From an uncultured Methanosarcinaceae archaeon (GTDB lineage: Archaea > Halobacteriota > Methanosarcinia > Methanosarcinales > Methanosarcinaceae), in the NCBI GenBank assembly GCA_963727895.1, contig CAVSHT010000011.1, positions 64,001-128,000 on the forward strand: a stretch of 64,000 nt of DNA, written 5' to 3'. The translations under genes were made by a program, and so were the position numbers. Shown in pieces: positions 3,114 to 53,187 of the stretch. The stretch's first letter is position 1. The number at the start of each line of letters is the position of its first letter. The notes beneath the pieces are model-generated. The model had not been told where the DNA came from. It did not search any database and saw nothing but the letters and a program-made list of their open reading frames with translations.

Positions 3114-3191
3114 TGGTGCTCCGGCCGGGATTCGAACCCGAGTCTTCGGCTCGAAAGGCCGGAATGATTGGCCGGACTACACTACCGGAGC
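3114..3191 (-). tRNA. tRNA-Glu(TTC)
   Basis: Reverse complement GCTCCGGTAGTGTAG...CT TTC GA...GGTTCGAATCCCGGCCGGAGCACCA; cloverleaf with encoded CCA. Confidence 0.97.
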
Positions 3192-3495: not shown

Positions 3496-3573
3496 TGGTG
3501 CTCCGGCCGGGATTCGAACCCGAGTCTTCGGCTCGAAAGGCCGGAATGATTGGCCGGACTACACTACCGGAGC
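3496..3573 (-). tRNA. tRNA-Glu(TTC), second identical copy
   Basis: Identical to 3114..3191; own TATA-like box near 3628-3638. Confidence 0.97.
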
Positions 3574-14036: not shown

Positions 14037-14799
14037 GGCATTGTTACTTAAATAGATCTAATTATTTATTGGGCATTGTTAACTAAACATAGTTAACTCT
14101 TTATTTCTTTATTTCATCAATAGAATAACCTAGTACTTTAGCATTTCAAGACTCTTCGTATAACACTTTGTCTTTCTTCTCAACCTTGCTAAAAAATGCC
14201 TCAATATGCTGTTATATCCTTCAACAGTATACGTTTTTGCTTTGGATTGAGTATGACTCTTTTCAGGAAGAAACTCTGCATATGCCCTCCAGTGATCTGT
14301 CATCACTTCTCCAATCTCTTTTTTCTTCAATTTTTCCCAGAGTAGTTTTCCAGTTTATGTTCCTCTGCTACCAAAAGAGCAGTTGATGAACTTTTTCCCA
14401 ACTCTATCAACAGCAATCCAGATACAGCAATATTTTTTTTGTTACCGATGTAAGTGTGCATCTCATCCATTTCAACAATAGATATCTCATTTTCACTTTT
14501 TAGGTTCTCTCACTCTTGACCAAATTTCTTTATCAATTTTTGGACAGAAACATGACTTACCCCTAAAACTCGTCCTATTGAGCGAAAGCCCAATCCTTCA
14601 AGATAGAGTTGTAAAGCCTGTCTTTTTACAGAAGCGGAAAAAGCAGTTGATTTTAGCTCTACTATATAGTTATATCCACAATCAGAGCATTTGTACCGTT
14701 GACGCCTGCCAACTATACCATTCTTTTTGTGATTAGAACTATTGCATCTGGGGCAGTTAATGAAGAAATATACTTTCTCTATGTTTAAGTATCAATGCC
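14037..14799 (-). mobile_element. IS1-family element with degenerate transposase and 8-bp TSD
   Basis: TIRs GGCATTGTTACTTAA / TTAAGTATCAATGCC; TSD AAAAAGAA at 14029-14036 and 14800-14807; InsB motif TDHWRAY..VEGYNS.LRHFLARL. Confidence 0.92.
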
Positions 14800-22696: not shown

Positions 22697-24301
22697 TTAC
22701 TTGCCTTCTTTTTCCTTTATGTATTTGCACATTGCCTCAACTAGACTATTAAATGGAGGAGATGGTCTTCCAGGTCTTGAACGGAATTCAGGATGGAACT
22801 GAGAGCCAAAGAAGAAACGTTTGCCAGGAATTTCCGCAATCTCCATTCTATTCTTGTTTTTTCCGGAAAATAGGATACCAAAAGACTCAAGTCTGTCCAC
22901 AAACTCTGGATTTACCTCATATCTATGGCGGTGGCGCTCTACAATGTAATTGGTTCCATAAATATTAGCAGCAATTGAACCTTCTTTAAGGATAGCTTCA
23001 TAGTCTCCAAGGCGCATGGTTCCACCCATGTCCGCAACACCAGTTTGCTCAGGCAAAATATCAATCACAGGATAAGGAGTATCTTCGTCAAATTCTGTAC
23101 TGTTTGCCCCTTCAAGTTTAGCCATATTTCTGGCAAACTCAATTACTGCAAGCTGCATCCCCAGGCAAATTCCAAGAAATGGAATATCGTTTTCTCTGGC
23201 AAACTTTATTGCCATCATTTTCCCTTCAGTGCCACGTTCTCCAAAACCACCCGGAATAAGAATTCCGTCATACTGTATTAAATTCTCAACATCTGTCGGA
23301 TTTTCTTCCAGTATTTCGGCTTCAACCATGTGGACATCAACCTTACATCCATTATCGATTCCACCGTGTTTGAGAGCTTCAAGAATGCTGAGATAAGAGT
23401 CCTCAAGATTGGTATATTTTCCGACGATTGCCAATTTGACGGTATTGGTTGTGGATTTCATCTTTGCAACCATTTCTTTCCATCCACCGTTTTCGACATC
23501 AGATTCAAGTTGCAGATGTTTCATTAGCTGGGAAGTTAAACCCTGCTTTTCTATATTAATAGGCACTTCATAAATATCGTCGGCATCATAAGCGCTAATG
23601 ACCAACTCCTGAGGAACGTCACAAAAGAGAGCGATTTTCTCTTTGGCACTATCCTGAAGAGGTGTTTTTGACCTCACAACTATCACTTCAGGGCTGAGAC
23701 CAAGGGCTCGAAGTTCTTTTACGGAATGCTGAGAAGGCTTGGTTTTTTGCTCACCTTGAAGATCTTCCATAGCTAAAGTCACATGAATAAATACAATGTT
23801 TTCTGAAGGTTCTTCCCTGTGCATCTGGCGTACAGCTTCAAGGAAAGGCATGCTTTCAATGTCACCAACAGTTCCTCCGATTTCGATAAGACATATATCA
23901 GCTCCACTTCTGGCAGCAACTTTTCTGATCCTGCTTTTTATCTCGTTTGTAACATGGGGAATTATCTGGACTGTTTTTCCGAGATACTCTCCTCTCCTCT
24001 CTTTGGAAATTACTTCCTGGTAAACCTTACCTGTAGTAAGATTATGATCTCTGGTAAGTTCCGTATCAAGGAATCTCTCGTAATTTCCAAGATCCAGGTC
24101 AACCTCCCCTCCATCCTTGAGCACAAAGACTTCCCCATGCTGGTAGGGGCTCATGGTACCTGCATCAATATTGATGTAAGGATCGATCTTAATAGCTGTA
24201 ACTTTATAACCTTTATTTTTAAGATTTCTGCCAATGGATGCGATGGTAATGCCTTTTCCAAGCCCACTCATCACCCCACCGGTAACTACTATATACTTCA
24301 T
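22697..24301 (-). CDS. pyrG: CTP synthase
   Basis: VTGGV.SGLGKG, KTKP.QHSV, GICLGMQ and QFHPE motifs. Confidence 0.98.
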
Positions 24302-24934
24302 GGGTAAGCTCCCTCAATAGTTTTCCGAATAGTGATTTTAGACTAAAGGATATTGTATGGAGTTAGACAGGGAAATAATCAAAGTTACTATTTTATAAGA
24401 AATATGTCATTAATTCTCTGGTACGAACACAATACCAATATCTTCATGATATAAAAAATACTCTCTACTTTTAAAAAGAGGATGTATTAAATATATTAGT
24501 AAGTAGTGATGAAACTGGATTAAAAAAGTTTTGTAGAAAAACTATCAAAACCAGCTTAAATAATCTGATTAAATATGAAAAACGGAGTTAAGTCATTTAA
24601 TTCAAATAAATAGAGATTAGTTACTTATTCGATTGTCTACAAAACCAAAAAATGTGAATATATAAGGCAATGGTTAAAATTTCAGCTACTTTAAAACATG
24701 GAATAGGAAAGAAAAGGTCAGAAAAGTATAATTTATCTAACCATAAAGTGACTCCTTAATCGCAAAAATATTCTGAATAATTTTTTCATGCTTTTCTTGC
24801 TATGAACCTGAAATTTATGAACTTGAATTAATTCTCATTTATAACCTAAAACGCACATGCTTTTCTTCGAATAACAAGCACAACTAATGAAAGTACTCTC
24901 CGTTCTTTTTTTTGACTATTAAGTCCTCATTACC

Positions 24935-25068
24935 TTGGGCAGTAAGGTTGTCTTGATTTTGGTTTTTCAAAACCGTCCTAAAACTAATCAGTGAATTGCC
25001 ATCGAAGGCTCAAGTGTGACTTTGATCACGGATGCTAAATTGGCCTTTTAGGCAATTCCACTGCCCAA
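24935..25068 (+). ncRNA. Putative bridge-RNA-like ncRNA in the IS110 non-coding end
   Basis: Outer stem TTGGGCAGT/ACTGCCCAA encloses two stem-loops carrying GTCCTAAA and GATGCTAAA. Confidence 0.6.
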
Positions 25069-25087
25069 ATAAATTTGGTGATCTAAT

Positions 25088-26353
25088 TTGATTGAAGTCA
25101 TAAACAAAGCTTGTGGTTTAGACATTCACAAACTCTTTTTCATTGCTACAATTTTCAGTAGATCTGGTGAAAAACAACAGCAACGTTTCAACAGAGATGA
25201 TGAAGGAATTTTAGCCCTTAAAAATTGGGTAATATCAGAAAAATGTGATGTTGTTGCATGTGAATCAACCAGCTACTTTTGGGTTCCGATTCATGATTCA
25301 TTGGTAAAGCATCTAACTGTGATAGTTGGAAATGCGCGAGATATGAAGGTATTTACCCATACAAAAACATATAAGATTGACTCAGAAGTCATTGCACAAC
25401 TTGCACTTAATAATATGATTCAGCCATCAAGAGTTTTTCCAAAGGATCATATAGATTTTAGATCATATGTTCGACTTCGGTTAACACTTGTACAAAAAAG
25501 AACAGATTTAAAAAATAAAGCTCACTCAATTCTTGCATCTGAAATTCAATTTTTGCATCTGAAATGCTACACCTGAATAATGTGCTGACAGACGTTTTTG
25601 GCAAGAATGGCAGAATGATCTTATTAGGAATCTCTTCAGGTAAGAGTGTTGGTCAGATTATTGCAAGCCTCTCTCCAAATGTTCGGAAAAAAGCTGCTCA
25701 GATAAGAGAAATTCTTGATCGAGAAATTTCTCAAAGTGCTGCATTCAGACTTCAGATCTGTCTGAAACTCATAAAAAGTCTTGATGATGAACTCGAAGCT
25801 TTAGAAACAGAAATTTTCAATTATGCTTCTCGAAATCATAAGCGAGAAATGGAGATTTTAATGTCAGTTCCAGGTATAGGGGAACTTGGTGCGGCAATTT
25901 TACTTGCTGAAATAGGCAACTTTAAGGATTTTTCTTCTGGAAATAAGCTTGCTTCTTGGCTTGGTCTAGTTCCTAATGTGTATCAATCTACAGATAAATA
26001 CTATAACGGCAGAATCACAAAGAGGGGATCAAAAGTAGCAAGGTGGATTCTGACACAGATTGCTCAAGCAGCAGCAAGAAAGAAGAATAGCAGGTTAAAA
26101 GAGTTTTTTAACAGAAAAAAGAAGTCGATTGGACATGCAAAAGCAATTATTGTCTTAGCAAGGAAAATTGCAACGATACTATGGCATCTTATTACAAACG
26201 ATGAGATGGACGAAGATGAAACCGGATATCAAAAGGGAGAAATCCAAAAGAGAAAGATTATTGAAACTGAGATTTTTTAGGTTGATGAACGGATTAAAAT
26301 AATTAGTGGAATATTTGCGATTATGGGGAAAAAGGATCAAGAGAGCACGTGAG
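25088..26353 (+). pseudogene. IS110 DEDD recombinase, disrupted
   Basis: GLDIHK, CEST, KTYKID (D to Y versus copy 2) and SVPGIG motifs; 20-bp duplication frameshift at 25526-25565; in-frame TAG at 26278. Confidence 0.9.
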
Positions 26354-26439
26354 GATAATCTCCTCATGTACTTTCATGCTAAACTGATGTAGATAGGATT
26401 AAAAGATATAATATTTTCAAATATACAATTTCCCAAAGT

Positions 26440-27183
26440 TTAACTTTCCTCTGCAATCTTTAGCAGAATATATATCATGCAGACCATAAAAAGTATTGAA
26501 AACAAAAGGGACTGGACAAAGCTGACTTTAAACTGCAGGCTTGAAGGTAGTATGAAATAGAGGAAAAATAAACATATAAGTAGTAAAAAACCTCCAAAAG
26601 CTAAATTCAAAGAATATTTATCATTTCCAGGTACATTGCGGCTTTTCTTTCCTGCGAAATCCAAAGAACCTTTTTTAAATTTATTACATACAGATGAAAA
26701 CCAATTAAGCCTTTTTCCTGACTTTGGACGAGAAGTCCTATTTATAGATAGTGAAATTGAAGGCTTTTGAAAGATAAATTCTTCGTTTCTATCCTCTACA
26801 TAGGACTCATCTTTTGATTGAGCCTGAGGCTGTGGATCAATTTTTCCAAGCTTTACTGGAAAACCTTTTTTTCTTGAGCCATAACCCGCCGTGATATAGA
26901 TCTGCCCTTCTATGAACACATTTCCTTCTAGAGGAATTCTTGCAACTGCGGAAATATATTCTTTTTGAAGCACATACGGGTTATCTCTCAAAAAAGTGAT
27001 TCTGCCTTTCAATTCTTCACTTACTGAGAGATGAATATGGGTAGGAGACCCGTAGTTTGTGATAAGAATCTCAAAGGTTTCTTCTTCGCCGGGAGAAAGA
27101 GGAATCTCGACATGTTCTTTTTCAAATTCAATTGAGTCTATTTCCTGTCGGTTGAGAACAACATTCTGGAATATCTGCTGCAA
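26440..27183 (-). CDS. Conserved archaeal membrane-anchored hypothetical protein
   Basis: LNR..I.SIEF, NYGSP.H.HL and TAGYG motifs, plus two C-terminal TM helices; directly downstream of trm112. Confidence 0.7.
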   Translation of the reverse strand: MQQIFQNVVLNRQEIDSIEFEKEHVEIPLSPGEEETFEILITNYGSPTHIHLSVSEELKGRITFLRDNPYVLQKEYISAVARIPLEGNVFIEGQIYITAGYGSRKKGFPVKLGKIDPQPQAQSKDESYVEDRNEEFIFQKPSISLSINRTSRPKSGKRLNWFSSVCNKFKKGSLDFAGKKSRNVPGNDKYSLNLAFGGFLLLICLFFLYFILPSSLQFKVSFVQSLLFSILFMVCMIYILLKIAEES

Positions 27184-37039: not shown

Positions 37040-37564
37040 AGTTAGCTCACATATTAGGACGTTATTGAATAGACGTTACTGATCGATATATATACTTGAC
37101 GTTTTAGAAAAAATAACCAGATTAGTGATAAAGTGATTGGCAAAAGTTGGTGTCACAATAAAGAGTTTTTCAATATACTGTAACCCCTTCCATACTTTGG
37201 CTAATTATATAAACTTACAGTATATAAAATTAACCTACGCCACATATACAATATATAGAAACCTTTCGTTATATAGAAACTTTTCGTTATATACGATTTA
37301 ACTAAAATTCAATTTGATTTGGAAATGAAATAGAAAATAATTCAAAATCAATGTTCAATAAATAAATGTTTAATTATAGATTTGGCTATATTATGATATT
37401 TCTCCTATATATAAATTGAGCATTATTTACTGATTCAAAGTTAATTCAAAACCAACTAAAACCTGGATAGGAAAGTTCAAAACTGGTTTAGAGAGAATTT
37501 AAAGATGATTCCGGGCGGATACAGAGATGATTTAGAGATGCCTCTGAGAGGATACAAATATGGT

Positions 37565-37759
37565 TTAGAAATTACTTAGAAATTACTTAGAAATTATTTA
37601 GAAATTATTTAGAAATTACTTAGAAATTACTTAGAAATTACTTAGAAATTATTTAGAAATTACTTAGAAATTACTTAGAAATTACTTAGAAATTATTTAG
37701 AAATTACTTAGAAATTACTTAGAAATTACTTAGAAATTATTTAGAAATTATTTAGAAAT
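37565..37759. repeat. 11-bp tandem repeat (TTAGAAATTAY), 17 units plus a partial
   Basis: Counted directly; no spacers. Confidence 0.95.
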
Positions 37760-37909
37760 AATTATGATTGATAAGAAGATCGTTCAGACTGGTCAGAGAG
37801 AACATAGAGAAAAGTAAAATAGATTTTAAAGAAATGCCAAAACTTAATATTTGATACCCATAAACCGACATCGATAGCTATTTAAAAAAATAAGAGGCTT
37901 TTTTCTCTT

Positions 37910-47677: not shown

Positions 47678-49215
47678 TTTAGCATGAAAGTACATGAGGA
47701 GATTATCCTCACGTGCTCTCTTGATCCTTTTTCCCCATAATCGCAAATATTCCACTAATTATTTTAATCCGTTCATCAACCTAAAAAATCTCAGTTTCAA
47801 TAATCTTTCTCTTTTGGATTTCTCCCTTTTGATATCCGGTTTCATCTTCGTCCATCTCATCGTTTGTAATAAGATGCCATAGTATCGTTGCAATTTTCCT
47901 TGCTAAGACAATAATTGCTTTTGCATGTCCAATCGACTTCTTTTTTCTGTTAAAAAACTCTTTTAACCTGCTATTCTTCTTTCTTGCTGCTGCTTGAGCA
48001 ATCTGTGTCAGAATCCACCTTGCTACTTTTGATCCCCTCTTTGTGATTCTGCCGTTATAGTATTTATCTGTAGATTGATACACATTAGGAACTAGACCAA
48101 GCCAAGAAGCAAGCTTATTTCCAGAAGAAAAATCCTTAAAGTTGCCTATTTCAGCAAGTAAAATTGCCGCACCAAGTTCCCCTATACCTGGAACTGACAT
48201 TAAAATCTCCATTTCTCGCTTATGATTTCGAGAAGCATAATTGAAAATTTCTGTTTCTAAAGCTTCGAGTTCATCATCAAGACTTTTTATGAGTTTCAGA
48301 CAGATCTGAAGTCTGAATGCAGCACTTTGAGAAATTTCTCGATCAAGAATTTCTCTTATCTGAGCAGCTTTTTTCCGAACATTTGGAGAGAGGCTTGCAA
48401 TAATCTGATCAACACTCTTACCTGAAGAGATTCCTAATAAGATCATTCTGCCATTCTTGCCAAAAACGTCTGTCAGCACATTATTCAGGTGTAGCATTTC
48501 AGATGCAAAAATTGAATTTCAGATGCAAGAATTGAGTGAGCTTTATTTTTTAAATCTGTTCTTTTTTGTACAAGTGTTAACCGAAGTCGAACATATGATC
48601 TAAAATCTATATGATCCTTTGGAAAAACTCTTGATGGCTGAATCATATTATTAAGTGCAAGTTGTGCAATGACTTCTGAGTCAATCTTATCTGTTTTTTT
48701 ATGGGTAAATACCTTTATATCTCGCGCATTTCCAACTATCACAGTTAGATGCTTTACCAATGAATCATGAATCGGAACCCAAAAGTAGCTGGTTGATTCA
48801 CATGCAACAACATCACATTTTTCTGATATTACCCAATTTTTAAGGGCTAAAATTCCTTCATCATCTCTGTTGAAACGTTGCTGTTGTTTTTCACCAGATC
48901 TACTGAAAATTGTAGCAATGAAAAAGAGTTTGTGAATGTCTAAACCACAAGCTTTGTTTATGACTTCAATCAAATTAGATCACCAAATTTATTTGGGCAG
49001 TGGAATTGCCTAAAAGGCCAATTTAGCATCCGTGATCAAAGTCACACTTGAGCCTTCGATGGCAATTCACTGATTAGTTTTAGGACGGTTTTGAAAAACC
49101 AAAATCGAGACAACCTTACTGCCCAAGGTAATGAGGACTTAATAGTCAAAAAAAAGAACGGAGAGTACTGTCATTAGTTGTGCTTGTTATTCGAAGAAAA
49201 GCATGTGCGTTTTAG
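47678..49215 (-). mobile_element. IS110-family element, copy 2 (inverted, near-identical to copy 1)
   Basis: Same length and CTAAA ends; same frameshift and TAG; retains KTDKID. Confidence 0.92.
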
Positions 49216-50089: not shown

Positions 50090-50161
50090 ACATCAGTAGT
50101 GTAGCGGTTATCACCGGGCGTTGCCAACGCTCGAACCCGGGTTCGAATCCCGGCTGGTGTA
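50090..50161 (+). tRNA. tRNA-Gly(GCC), duplicate
   Basis: Identical copy at +340 bp. Confidence 0.93.
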
Positions 50162-50172
50162 TAATAATTTTT

Positions 50173-50398
50173 GGCATTGTTACTTAACTATATCTAGTTT
50201 TTAATTTCTTTATTTCATCAATAGAATAACCGAGTACTTTAGCATTTCAAGACTCTTCGTATAACACTTTGTCTTTCTTCTCAACCTTGCCAGGAAATGC
50301 CTCAATATGCTGTTATATCCTTCAACAGTATACGTTTCTGCTTTTGATTGAGTATGGATCTTTTCTGGAAGAAACTCTGCATATGCTCTCCAGTGATC
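50173..50398 (-). mobile_element. IS1 fragment (one TIR plus the InsB 3' end)
   Basis: GGCATTGTTACTTAA at 50173; breaks off within TDHWRAY. Confidence 0.88.
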
Positions 50399-50420
50399 GG
50401 TCTGGTGTATAATAATTTTT

Positions 50421-51159
50421 GGCATTGTTACTTAACTATATCTAGTTTTTAATTTCTTTATTTCATCAATAGAATAACCGAGTACTTTAGCATTTCAAGA
50501 CTTTTTGTATAACACTTTGTCTTTCTTCTCAACCTTGCCAAAAAGTGCCTCAATATGCTGTTATATCCTTCAACAGTATACGTTTTTGCTTTTGATTGAG
50601 TATGAATCGTTTCAGGACGAAACTCTGCATATGCCCTCCAGTGATCTGTCATCACTTCTCCAATCTCTTTTTTCTTCAATTTTTCCCAGAGTAGTTTTCC
50701 AGTTTCCGTTCCTCTGCTATCAAAAGAGCAGTTGATAAACTTTTTCCCAACTCTATCAACAGCAATCCAGATCCAGCAATATTTTTTTTGTTACCGATGT
50801 AAGTGTGCATCTCATCCATTTCAACAATAGATATCTCATTTTCGCTTTTTAGGTCCTCTAACTCCTTACCAAATTTCTTGATCCATTTTTGGACAGAAAC
50901 ATGACTCACCCCTAAAACTCTTCCTATTTAGCGAAAGCCCAATCCTTCAAGGTAAAGTTGTAAAGCCTGTTTTTTAACAGAGACGGAAAAAGCAGTTGAT
51001 TTTAGCTCTACTGTATAGTTATATCCACAATCATGGCATTTGTAGCGTTGACGCCCACCAACTATACCGTTTTTTTGTGACTGGAACTATTGCATCTGGG
51101 GCAGTTAATGAAGAAATATACTTTCTAATAGTATATAACTATGTTTAAGTATCAATGCC
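50421..51159 (-). mobile_element. IS1-family element with degenerate transposase
   Basis: Both TIRs present; near-TSD TAATTTTT/TAATTTAT; A-run slippery site; internal TAA near 50929. Confidence 0.92.
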
Positions 51160-52247: not shown

Positions 52248-52447
52248 TCTGCTAATAAAAGCAGAGCCCTCCTTTATTACAATTCTTTTTTCCACCTTTT
52301 TTAAAGTATCTGTATGGAGTTTTATTGCTGAAAGCATTTTTGTTAGTTAAAGTGTTTTTGCAGTCAGAGTAACATCTAGATAAAGTCCATAATTTTGAAA
52401 CATATTTTAAATTTCGCATTGTGTACTTTGCACTTATACTTTTACTA

Positions 52448-53187
52448 GGCATTGTTACTTAACTATATCTAGTTCTTTATTTCTGTATTTCATCAATAGA
52501 ATAACCGAGTACTTTAGCATTTCAAGACTCTTCGTATAACACTTTGTCTTTCTTCTCAACCTTGCCAGAAAATACCTCAATATGCTGTTATATCCCTCAA
52601 CTGTAAATGTTTCTGCTTTTGATTGAGTATGAATCGTTTAAGGAATAAACTCTGCATATGCTCTCCAGTGATCTGTCATCATTTCTCCAATTTATTTTTT
52701 CTTCAATTTTTCCCAGAGTAGTTTTCCAGTTTCCGTTCCTCTGCTGCCAAAAGAGCAGTTGATGAACTTTTTCCCAACTCTATCAACAGCAATCCAGATC
52801 CAGCAATATTTTTTTTGTTACCAATGTAAGTGTTCATTTCATCCATTTCAACAATAGATATCTCATTTTCACTTTTTAGATCCTCTAACTCCTGACCAAA
52901 TTTCGTTATCCATTTTTGGACAGAAACATGACTCACCCCTAAAACTCTTCCTATTGAGCGAAAGCCCAATCCTTCAAGATAGAGTTGTAAAGCCTGTTTT
53001 TTGACATAAGTGAAAAAAGCAGTTGATTTTAGCTCTACTGTATAGTTATATCCACAATCATGGCATTTGTACCGTTGACGACCACCAACTATACCATTCT
53101 TTTTGTGACTGGAACTATTGCATCTGGGGCAGTTAATGAAGAAATAGAGGTTCTCATAATAAATAACTATAGTTAATTAGCAAAGCC
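52448..53187 (-). mobile_element. IS1-family element without TSD
   Basis: TIRs GGCATTGTTACTTAACTATA / TATAGTTAATTAGCAAAGCC; flanks TTTTACTA versus CTCACGGG do not match. Confidence 0.88.

Follow-up and report, generated by a model that had tools for sequence, protein, structure and literature searches.

RNA-guided IS110 recombinases are under development for genome writing, and what can be engineered depends on how diverse they are in nature. The described elements fall into two groups, for which we rely here and throughout on excerpts of the published texts. Those of the IS110 group carry their RNA in the left end and have 2–3-bp subterminal repeats, those of the IS1111 group carry it in the right end and have 7–17-bp subterminal repeats, and bridge RNAs were predicted for 85.7% of the IS110-group and 93.0% of the IS1111-group ISfinder entries; in IS621 the left-target and left-donor guides pair with the bottom strand, and the core takes part in every pairing (Durrant et al. 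2024, PMC11208160). In the IS1111 types the match to the top strand precedes, 5' to 3', that to the bottom strand, an order that is reversed in ISEc21 (IS110 type), and there are exceptions with an upstream non-coding region, for example ISMtsp17 (Siddiquee et al. 2024, PMC11187229). A preprint counted 662 archaeal IS110 recombinases, whose RNAs are not described in the parts shown (10.1101/2024.06.21.599552), and a 2026 preprint reports 86 covariance models that cover 32,190 bridge RNAs of intergenic regions in bacteria and archaea (10.64898/2026.10.21.760802). Our literature search found, among the matches listed, no publication that pairs Methanosarcina with bridge RNA, and the methanogen RNA class may already lie within the published model and prediction sets. 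The subject of this report is an IS110-family element at positions 24846–26383 (+ strand) of a 64,000-nucleotide stretch of DNA, called the window below (contig CAVSHT010000011.1 of assembly GCA_963727895.1, from an uncultured Methanosarcinaceae archaeon). It very probably belongs to a widespread IS110-family RNA-guided clade of methanogens and some bacteria in which the left end encodes a bridge or seek RNA, and the window copy carries a real and known mechanism in a variant layout. New here are the mapped anatomy of the methanogen clade and its mixed IS110/IS1111 layout, in which no right-donor guide is detectable. The joint basis for this is the family domains of the protein, a conserved RNA fold, three covarying loop strands, the arithmetic of the A-runs at the junctions, and the subterminal repeats.

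The source assembly comprises 3.67 Mb in 19 contigs and is 84% complete, and the element is one of about 22 near-full copies in it, to which fragments are to be added. Two copies lie in the window, as had been claimed in an earlier note on this DNA that was made from the sequence alone; repeat comparison gives a 1538-bp repeat at 24846–26383 (+) and 47678–49215 (−). This span includes 3 to 6 ambiguous bases beyond the element proper, which is ~1532 bp long (24852–26383, +) and runs from the first right-donor base (CGCACATG...) through the AAA at the right end. The family assignment comes from a 1518-bp copy (L015) with a single open reading frame (ORF) of 390 amino acids, whose product matches PF01548 DEDD_Tnp_IS110 (E 2.5e-17), PF02371 Transposase_20 (E 3.6e-26) and, scoring 261 bits where the cut-off is 140, NCBIfam NF033542 "IS110 family RNA-guided transposase". 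In its C-terminal part the protein can be aligned with IS621 (PDB 8wt6, E 3.7e-9), and there the Ser of GLVPNVYQS falls on that of GLTPRRYES. For placement between the IS110 and IS1111 clades, tblastn against plasmids returned only generic "IS110 family transposase" names.

The 240 nucleotides (nt) upstream of the gene are conserved, with variable patches, in the relatives retrieved via the protein, and they contain a bridge-RNA-like non-coding RNA of ~135 nt (24935–25068, + strand like all its parts), delimited by the two strands of its outer stem and recognised by fold, covariation and covariance model. This outer stem, P1 (24935–24943, TTGGGCAGT, with 25060–25068, ACTGCCCAA), encloses both stem-loops. 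The putative target-binding stem-loop (24946–24989) is built from P2 (24946–24950, GGTTG, with 24985–24989, TAATC), a 5' strand (24951–24960, TCTTGATTTT) antisense to the A-run and right flank, the hairpin P3 (24961–24974, GGTTT..AAACC) and a 3' strand (24975–24983, GTCCTAAAA) that is a sense copy of the left flank and A-run. The putative donor-binding stem-loop (24993–25058) is built from P4 (24993–25000, GAATTGCC, with 25051–25058, GGCAATTC), P5 (25005–25009, AAGGC, with 25043–25047, GCCTT), a short 5' strand (25010–25014, TCAAG), the hairpin P6 (25015–25030; TGTGA at 25015–25019 with TCACG at 25026–25030) and a 3' strand (25031–25041) that includes ATGCTAAA (25032–25039), a sense copy of the right end. 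The outer stem, the hairpin of the first module and the stems of the second module had been proposed in the earlier note, and all hold up both in position and by covariation; its two-module fold was incomplete, however, in that P2 and the 5' guide at 24951–24960 had been overlooked.

Given a MAFFT alignment of 23 sequences, RNAalifold recovered P2, P3 and P6 unaided, and a covariance model with the six helices P1–P6 was built from the same alignment. In it compensatory changes are found in 15 of the 37 pairs (P2, for instance, becomes GGCCG/TGGC[CT] in two sequences), 89.3% of the cells are paired as against 30–51% with the partners slid, and the covariation score is matched by none of 500 shuffles. 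The alignment of 54 hits (53 distinct sequences) that was fitted to the model has compensatory changes in 32 of the 37 pairs and 88.8% of its cells paired, as against 35–44% when slid, and none of 500 shuffles attains any of these measures; being fitted to the model it is biased toward the structure, a bias of which the MAFFT alignment is free. Covariation backs all six helices, and the fold is conserved across homologs as the earlier note had anticipated. In an Rfam scan of 24700–26500 all hits were at chance level, the best being SNORD81 (20.4 bits, gathering score 50) and RAGATH-31 (18.3 bits against 71.8).

The stems stay fixed from element to element and the loop strands vary, and across about 50 elements from many genomes the latter covary with the flanks, which is what the earlier note had expected of its first module, and with the right end. 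For the comparisons with flanking DNA four of the 54 hits were dropped (L092, which duplicates the location of L036; L099, with a disrupted RNA; L031, with no recognisable left end; and L058, on too short a contig), and left ends were set by a conserved end motif (A-run, then C..CATG), five corrections being made by hand. The left-target guide, which is the 3' strand of loop 1, agrees with the left flank at 323 of 397 positions if the core is counted, and at 176 of 247 over the five positions before the last three A, where the permutation mean is 88.1 (standard deviation (sd) 6.6, maximum 119; reached by 0 of 10,000). Right ends were located by the motif TT[TC]..AT[AG]..AA, 1150–1560 nt downstream, for 38 hits, or 37 without L092, yielding 23 distinct guide/end pairs in which the doubtful right ends of L031, L024 and L097 were retained and counted as partial misses; here the 3' strand of loop 2, the left-donor guide, has 58 of 69 variable positions in common with the right end (permutation mean 35.8, sd 3.3; 0 of 10,000). 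These two strands are the target-like sequence and the donor match that had been pointed out in the earlier note, and both readings are borne out. The 5' strand of loop 1 is antisense, and following its U-run it would serve as a right-target guide: among 33 elements (also dropped were L109 and L103, which are flanked by a further copy of an element, and L032 and L102, which lie at a contig end) it matches 101 of 195 of the first six flank bases (permutation mean 67.3, sd 5.7, maximum 87; 0 of 10,000), the best cases being L091 with 6/6 and L035, L089, L034, L036 and L113 with 5/6 each. The placement of the guides 3' of the inner hairpins, as first given, is therefore right for the two sense guides and wrong for the antisense right-flank guide, which is found on the 5' side of hairpin 1. 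The window copy at 24846 has TCTTGATTTT as this 5' guide, one base off the majority form TCTCGATTTT found in the second window copy; the majority form is antisense to AAAATCG and fits the A5-TCGTCC variant of the target described below. A blind scan of all DNA positions against all RNA columns also picked out the left-target diagonal (columns 154–160, z 4.9–8.4) and the left-donor diagonal (columns 219–220, z 4.5–4.8); for the right target no clean diagonal emerged, loops and A-runs being of variable length, and the test anchored on the A-run or U-run worked. Effects this large, seen at so many different sites, make a chance origin of the guide matches unlikely.

Another way to account for the conserved structure is as a mere 5' leader that controls translation or stability of the transposase message, the likeness of its loops to the flanks being incidental, for example a product of A-rich composition. 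The RNA stops 20 nt short of the start codon and so is likely part of the messenger leader, and all guides end in A- or U-runs, which raises raw match counts such as the 323 of 397 obtained with the core. The permutations that exclude the A-runs nevertheless still give the 176 and 58 matches cited above against expectations of 88 and 36, changes in the loop from CT to CC, TT, GA or GG are mirrored at the right end ~1.3 kb away, and leader and guide roles can coexist; we consider an incidental likeness very improbable indeed.

The ends of the element were defined by orienting 20 genomic copies, all of which (20/20) have the left end ...CTAAAACGCAC and the right end ...TTTCATGCTAAA. Comparison of their flanks with one another and with 221 empty sites places the left junction A-run, which comprises the end of the left target and the core, at 24848–24851 (+), somewhere within which the crossover falls; flank and right-end comparison places the right end, made up of the left donor CATGCT and AAA, at 26375–26383 (+). 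The favoured target is a site inside another, high-copy insertion sequence (IS)-like repeat with 234 sites genome-wide, 221 of them empty and 13 filled (the left flank of 13 copies). Empty sites read CCCCT-AAAA-CTCTTCC (133), CCCCT-AAAAA-TCGTCC (45) or CCCCT-AAAAA-TCTTCC (12), or have rarer forms, and an example target sequence for the element is CCCCTAAAAATCGTCC. Filled sites have four A at the left junction and three or four at the right junction, one fewer than the matching empty site. Adding the left and right junctions and subtracting the target gives joined ends of CATGCT-AAA-CGCAC, with three A, and the A4 and A5 targets agree on this; by the same bookkeeping over the 221 empty and 13 filled sites, insertion causes no target duplication.

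A core or duplication of five nt, CTAAA, had been claimed for the element in the earlier note, and this has to be abandoned: the CTCTTCC-class empty site that it predicts, CCCCTAAACTCTTCC, occurs at 0 of 221 empty sites, and the A4 form at 133. The empty targets that were given for the window copies on that basis are, following the A-run arithmetic, probably one A short. In relatives the bases before the A-run are unlike between donor (GCC, GTT, GGA, AGG) and target (AGA, CAG, TTA), indicating that the core is the A-run alone. The shared core is AA or AAA, with the crossover falling within 2–3 A, and CTAAA as a shared core is a coincidence of this lineage, in which CT happens to stand at the end of the left target as well as of the left donor. 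A search with the left flank of the window copy (24300–24850) in 40 genomes of the genus gave no readable empty site; only the first 178 nt of that flank, beside pyrG, are conserved across them. We note that at one locus in another genome (L109, G018:C139) two copies of a related element stand head to tail with one common junction, CATGGT-AAA-CGCCG, which is what a circle junction would look like. The target repeat itself is seen in the window at about 14059–14368, 50160–50717 and 52435–52744, and its conserved part begins over 400 nt ahead of the insertion site and reaches ~255 nt beyond it. Its opposite strand opens with a zinc-ribbon-like peptide, CPxC...NG..QRYKC, which we take to resemble InsA of IS1 type.

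The recombinase gene of the window copy is broken. Its N-terminal piece (25088–25576, +; 162 amino acids, the DEDD/RuvC-like domain) is ended by a frameshift, and its C-terminal piece (25564–26280, +; 238 amino acids, coiled coil and Transposase_20) starts at a Met internal to the intact protein, exactly the one that follows ...ILASE. The break coincides with a 20-bp tandem duplication at 25526–25565 (+), which consists of TCAATTCTTGCATCTGAAAT and a near copy, and relatives lack 20 bases here. Among the 20 copies the unit is present once in L015, L018, L020 and L022, twice in 15 that include both window copies, and four times in L017; one or four units leave the frame open and two split the gene. 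In addition, codon 25370–25372 is TAT (Tyr) in five of the 20 copies (window copy 24846, L003, L004, L009 and L015, the last being otherwise intact), where the other 15 and every relative translated have the Asp (GAT) of the motif KKTDKIDSE; contigs from RNA libraries of relatives have T>G at 25370 in all four runs compared. The window copy at 24846, with its gene split by the 20-bp duplication and Tyr for the motif Asp, is non-autonomous, and the second window copy is split likewise and retains the Asp. Slip-strand changes in the number of 20-bp units may turn the recombinase on and off, or the duplication could be a decay mutation that spread.

These defects bear on how the element came to be so numerous. 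The copies in this genome could have spread mainly inside a transposing high-copy host repeat, or by homologous recombination, leaving RNA-guided insertion as a relic. Both flanks come from the same 234-copy repeat in 9 of the 20 copies and several have mixed flanks; the frame-breaking two-unit repeat is common to 15; and since no copy combines an open frame with the canonical Asp, recent activity here needs an unseen or trans-acting source. Set against this are at least four right-flank variants at the filled sites, at least seven copies whose left flank lies outside the repeat, including two, the window copies, with both flanks outside it, and the A-run bookkeeping at these sites, which fits site-specific recombination; an intact copy could also be missing from the 84%-complete assembly. 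We regard spread by these routes as possible though somewhat unlikely, and it concerns the history of the element in this genome and not the identity of the RNA. In one copy that is 94% identical (L020, G000:C4:52540-54056) the left-target guide, TACTAAAA, fits the copy's own left flank, which is not repeat sequence, at 8 of 8 positions, but the donor guide, ATGTCAAA, disagrees with the copy's own right end, ATGCTAAA, and the right flank derives from the common repeat; the copy looks like a recombinant of two lineages, a mismatch of the kind that spread by recombination would leave. On the same contig lies a ~85-bp miniature derivative (L028, G000:C4, around 415173–415226) of which nothing remains but the left end, the two subterminal repeats and the right end (CATGTCAAA). 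Its right end agrees with the donor guide ATGTCAAA of the L020/L024 lineage, and it may be a non-autonomous partner of that lineage.

The RNA is not peculiar to this genome. Relatives found through the protein occur in Methanosarcina spp. (79–93% amino acid identity), Methanospirillum (54%), Methanoculleus, Methanoperedens (41%) and others, and the RNA model matches 55 of 151 genomes sampled from the class, own genome counted, with matches in 14 of the 18 further genomes from its genus and in 36 of the 74 from a second family. In all 54 hits with the gene alongside, the RNA is upstream of it, and only ~100 nt downstream of the gene are non-coding. On an Enterococcus faecalis plasmid (NZ_CP138659.1, L124:523-678) the model also has a match (37.8 bits, E 3.8e-9) a short way upstream of an IS110 gene, so the RNA class is not confined to archaea, and the "archaeal" label first given to the system was too narrow. 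The Enterococcus protein has 31% amino acid identity, a perfect TATAAT stands just before the RNA match, and the right end of this element, CGTATAAAA, matches its own loop 2 guide, GUAUAAAA; its left end could not be placed and was possibly cut by IS1216. No match to the RNA model was found at a Caballeronia relative with 33% identity. In the window copy a T-rich, TATA-like stretch at 24904–24921 (+) precedes the RNA by 15–30 nt and keeps its position among Methanosarcina copies; it is a candidate archaeal promoter, and together with the Enterococcus TATAAT it suggests that the RNA may have an internal promoter. Contigs from RNA libraries of four studies (at least 88% identity) span RNA and gene in relatives, for example a 143-nt contig over 24942–25082 (run X5) and a 1540-nt contig over 24927–25815 (run X10), and some run on into unlike upstream sequence.

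The reading that we favour, an RNA-guided element, would work as follows. The left non-coding end would give rise to a bridge or seek RNA of ~135 nt in which P1 closes the two stem-loops, the internal loop of the first holding two guides for the target. The RNA, probably bound to the recombinase, would bring the joined ends CATGCT-AAA-CGCAC, presumably in the form of a circle, together with a target such as CCCCT-AAAAA-TCG, and the DEDD/Ser recombinase would exchange strands inside the A-run without target duplication. The main elements of this scheme, an IS110 DEDD element with an upstream two-loop RNA resembling target and donor, had been put forward from the letters of the window, and the family domains, the covarying fold and the covariation of the loop strands support them.

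Several results weigh against it, or narrow it. The fold energy of the single sequence is ordinary (z −1.33), and the Rfam scan of 24700–26500 at a permissive threshold gave no family match. Element ends at single-copy loci were placed by conserved motifs and a few hand fixes, and the permutation statistics are overstated in that they treat related elements as independent. The right-target signal is modest (52%), with poor matches that include L022 (0/6) and the window copy (1/6). The contigs from RNA libraries come from relatives, may be DNA and lack ends and strand, and so are no proof of transcription; and copies with an open frame plus canonical Asp number 0 of 20 in this 84%-complete assembly. 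To these is added the donor loop, for which a column scan of 50 elements found no right-donor guide and returned clade-marker correlations only: the 5' strand of this loop is merely 4–5 nt long, and positions 2–3 of the right donor vary (GC, AT, AC, GA, GG, GT) without the RNA changing in step.

The earlier note had suggested for the missing role GTGTG, which could pair with the donor sequence CGCAC. This sequence sits in the 5' strand of P6, a covarying stem, and does not track the right-donor bases; in other clades P6 becomes TGCGA..TCGCG, with compensation, while the right donor becomes CACCC or CCCCT. Since P6 and the right donor change independently between clades, GTGTG is structural and not a guide. 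A UUU in the loop of P6 was also tried as right-donor guide and is not conserved. The right-donor side is probably read by the protein, through CATG and the subterminal repeat, and not by RNA.

These subterminal inverted repeats recur across the clade. They are 8–13 bp long, with the left copy 31–37 nt from the left end and the right copy 6–8 nt from the right end, and an exact repeat of at least 9 bp is present in 24 of 36 elements (shuffle mean ~5.6). In the window copy ATGAAAGTAC at 24887–24896 (+) forms a 10-bp exact inverted repeat with GTACTTTCAT at 26368–26377 (+), and at this constant position the sequence is clade-specific, being ATGAAAGTAC, CATGAAAAAC, ATGTAAAACC, CATGAGAAAC or AAAAGGGGTAGGT.

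With its parts identified, the element can be set beside the described systems. Like IS621 and the IS110 group (PMC11208160; PMC11208158) it has a DEDD plus Transposase_20 recombinase, an RNA that is encoded ahead of the gene, on its strand, in the left non-coding end, two stem-loops with internal loops of which the first reads the target and the second the donor, a short core common to donor and target within the guides, no target duplication, and insertion into a repeated sequence. Unlike IS621, as published, it has the bottom-strand-pairing sense guide on the 3' and not the 5' side, a core of AA or AAA and not CT, no right-donor guide that could be found, and a protein of 390 and not 326–341 amino acids that aligns by sequence in its C-terminal part alone; and its 8–13-bp subterminal repeats differ from the 2–3 bp of the IS110 group. 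It shares with the IS1111 group (PMC11187229) the top-strand match 5' of the bottom-strand match, subterminal repeats within 7–17 bp and the protein motif GL-P----S, whereas its RNA is upstream and not downstream of the gene, its protein is longer than 330–350 amino acids, and its motif ends in ST and not SG or TG. ISEc21 (Siddiquee et al. 2024, PMC11187229) resembles it in that the preferred target is a conserved site in a more abundant insertion sequence; ISEc21 targets IS3-family transposase genes and the methanogen element the ~234-copy repeat, and the guide order differs too.

Compared by published layouts, then, the element is a mosaic of an IS110-type RNA position with IS1111-type guide order and subterminal repeats. 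In both of its loops the sense guides lie 3' of the inner hairpins, which is not the order published for IS621 and ISEc21. One could suppose that this is a standard IS621-type bridge RNA and that the order found here is a labelling error, a swap of left and right or of top and bottom by convention, and the layouts of IS621 and ISEc21 are indeed known here from published text alone. Two independent papers, however, state the order for the IS110 type (ISEc21 having its top-strand match 3' of the bottom-strand match and IS1111 5' in Siddiquee et al. 2024), in each of the two loops the strand whose sequence is that of the left flank stands 3' of the hairpin when the gene is read from left to right, and the 8–13-bp subterminal repeats fit IS1111 rather than IS621; an error of labelling is accordingly quite improbable. 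More speculative is a third architectural class, with an upstream RNA with outer stem, IS1111-type polarity, a single donor guide, and the other donor side read via the long subterminal repeats. This we offer tentatively and hold to be unlikely as matters stand. Were it true, such elements, native to archaeal transcription, could be a source of a compact, programmable recombinase functional in methanogens.

The clade in any case provides a well-resolved methanogen example of RNA-guided insertion, with some 50 elements and mapped guide positions. The seeming absence of one of the four guides bears on how RNAs have moved between element ends in evolution and on the share of donor recognition that is left to the protein. 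Intact relatives, with ORFs of 416–422 amino acids in several Methanosarcina genomes (L034, L035 and L086 among them), are candidate site-specific insertion tools for methanogen genetics, and the covariance model marks these elements and their true ends for genome annotation.

Three further observations were made in passing. At one locus (L103, G056:C104) a different second element of the same family abuts the right end of the first (ACATAGGAAA|CTAACATGAGG), and the left-target guide of the second, TCAGGAAA, resembles the right end of the first, ATAGGAAA; judged from these sequences, the end of one element may have served as the insertion site of the other. Elsewhere in the window, 3114–3191 and 3496–3573 are identical 78-nt repeats that are tRNA-gene-like on the minus strand (reading ...TGGTGCTCCGGCCGGGATTCGAACC). 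A long array with a period of 11 nt occupies 37455–37773, where the repeat finder gives 18 overlapping copies of a 132-nt pattern.

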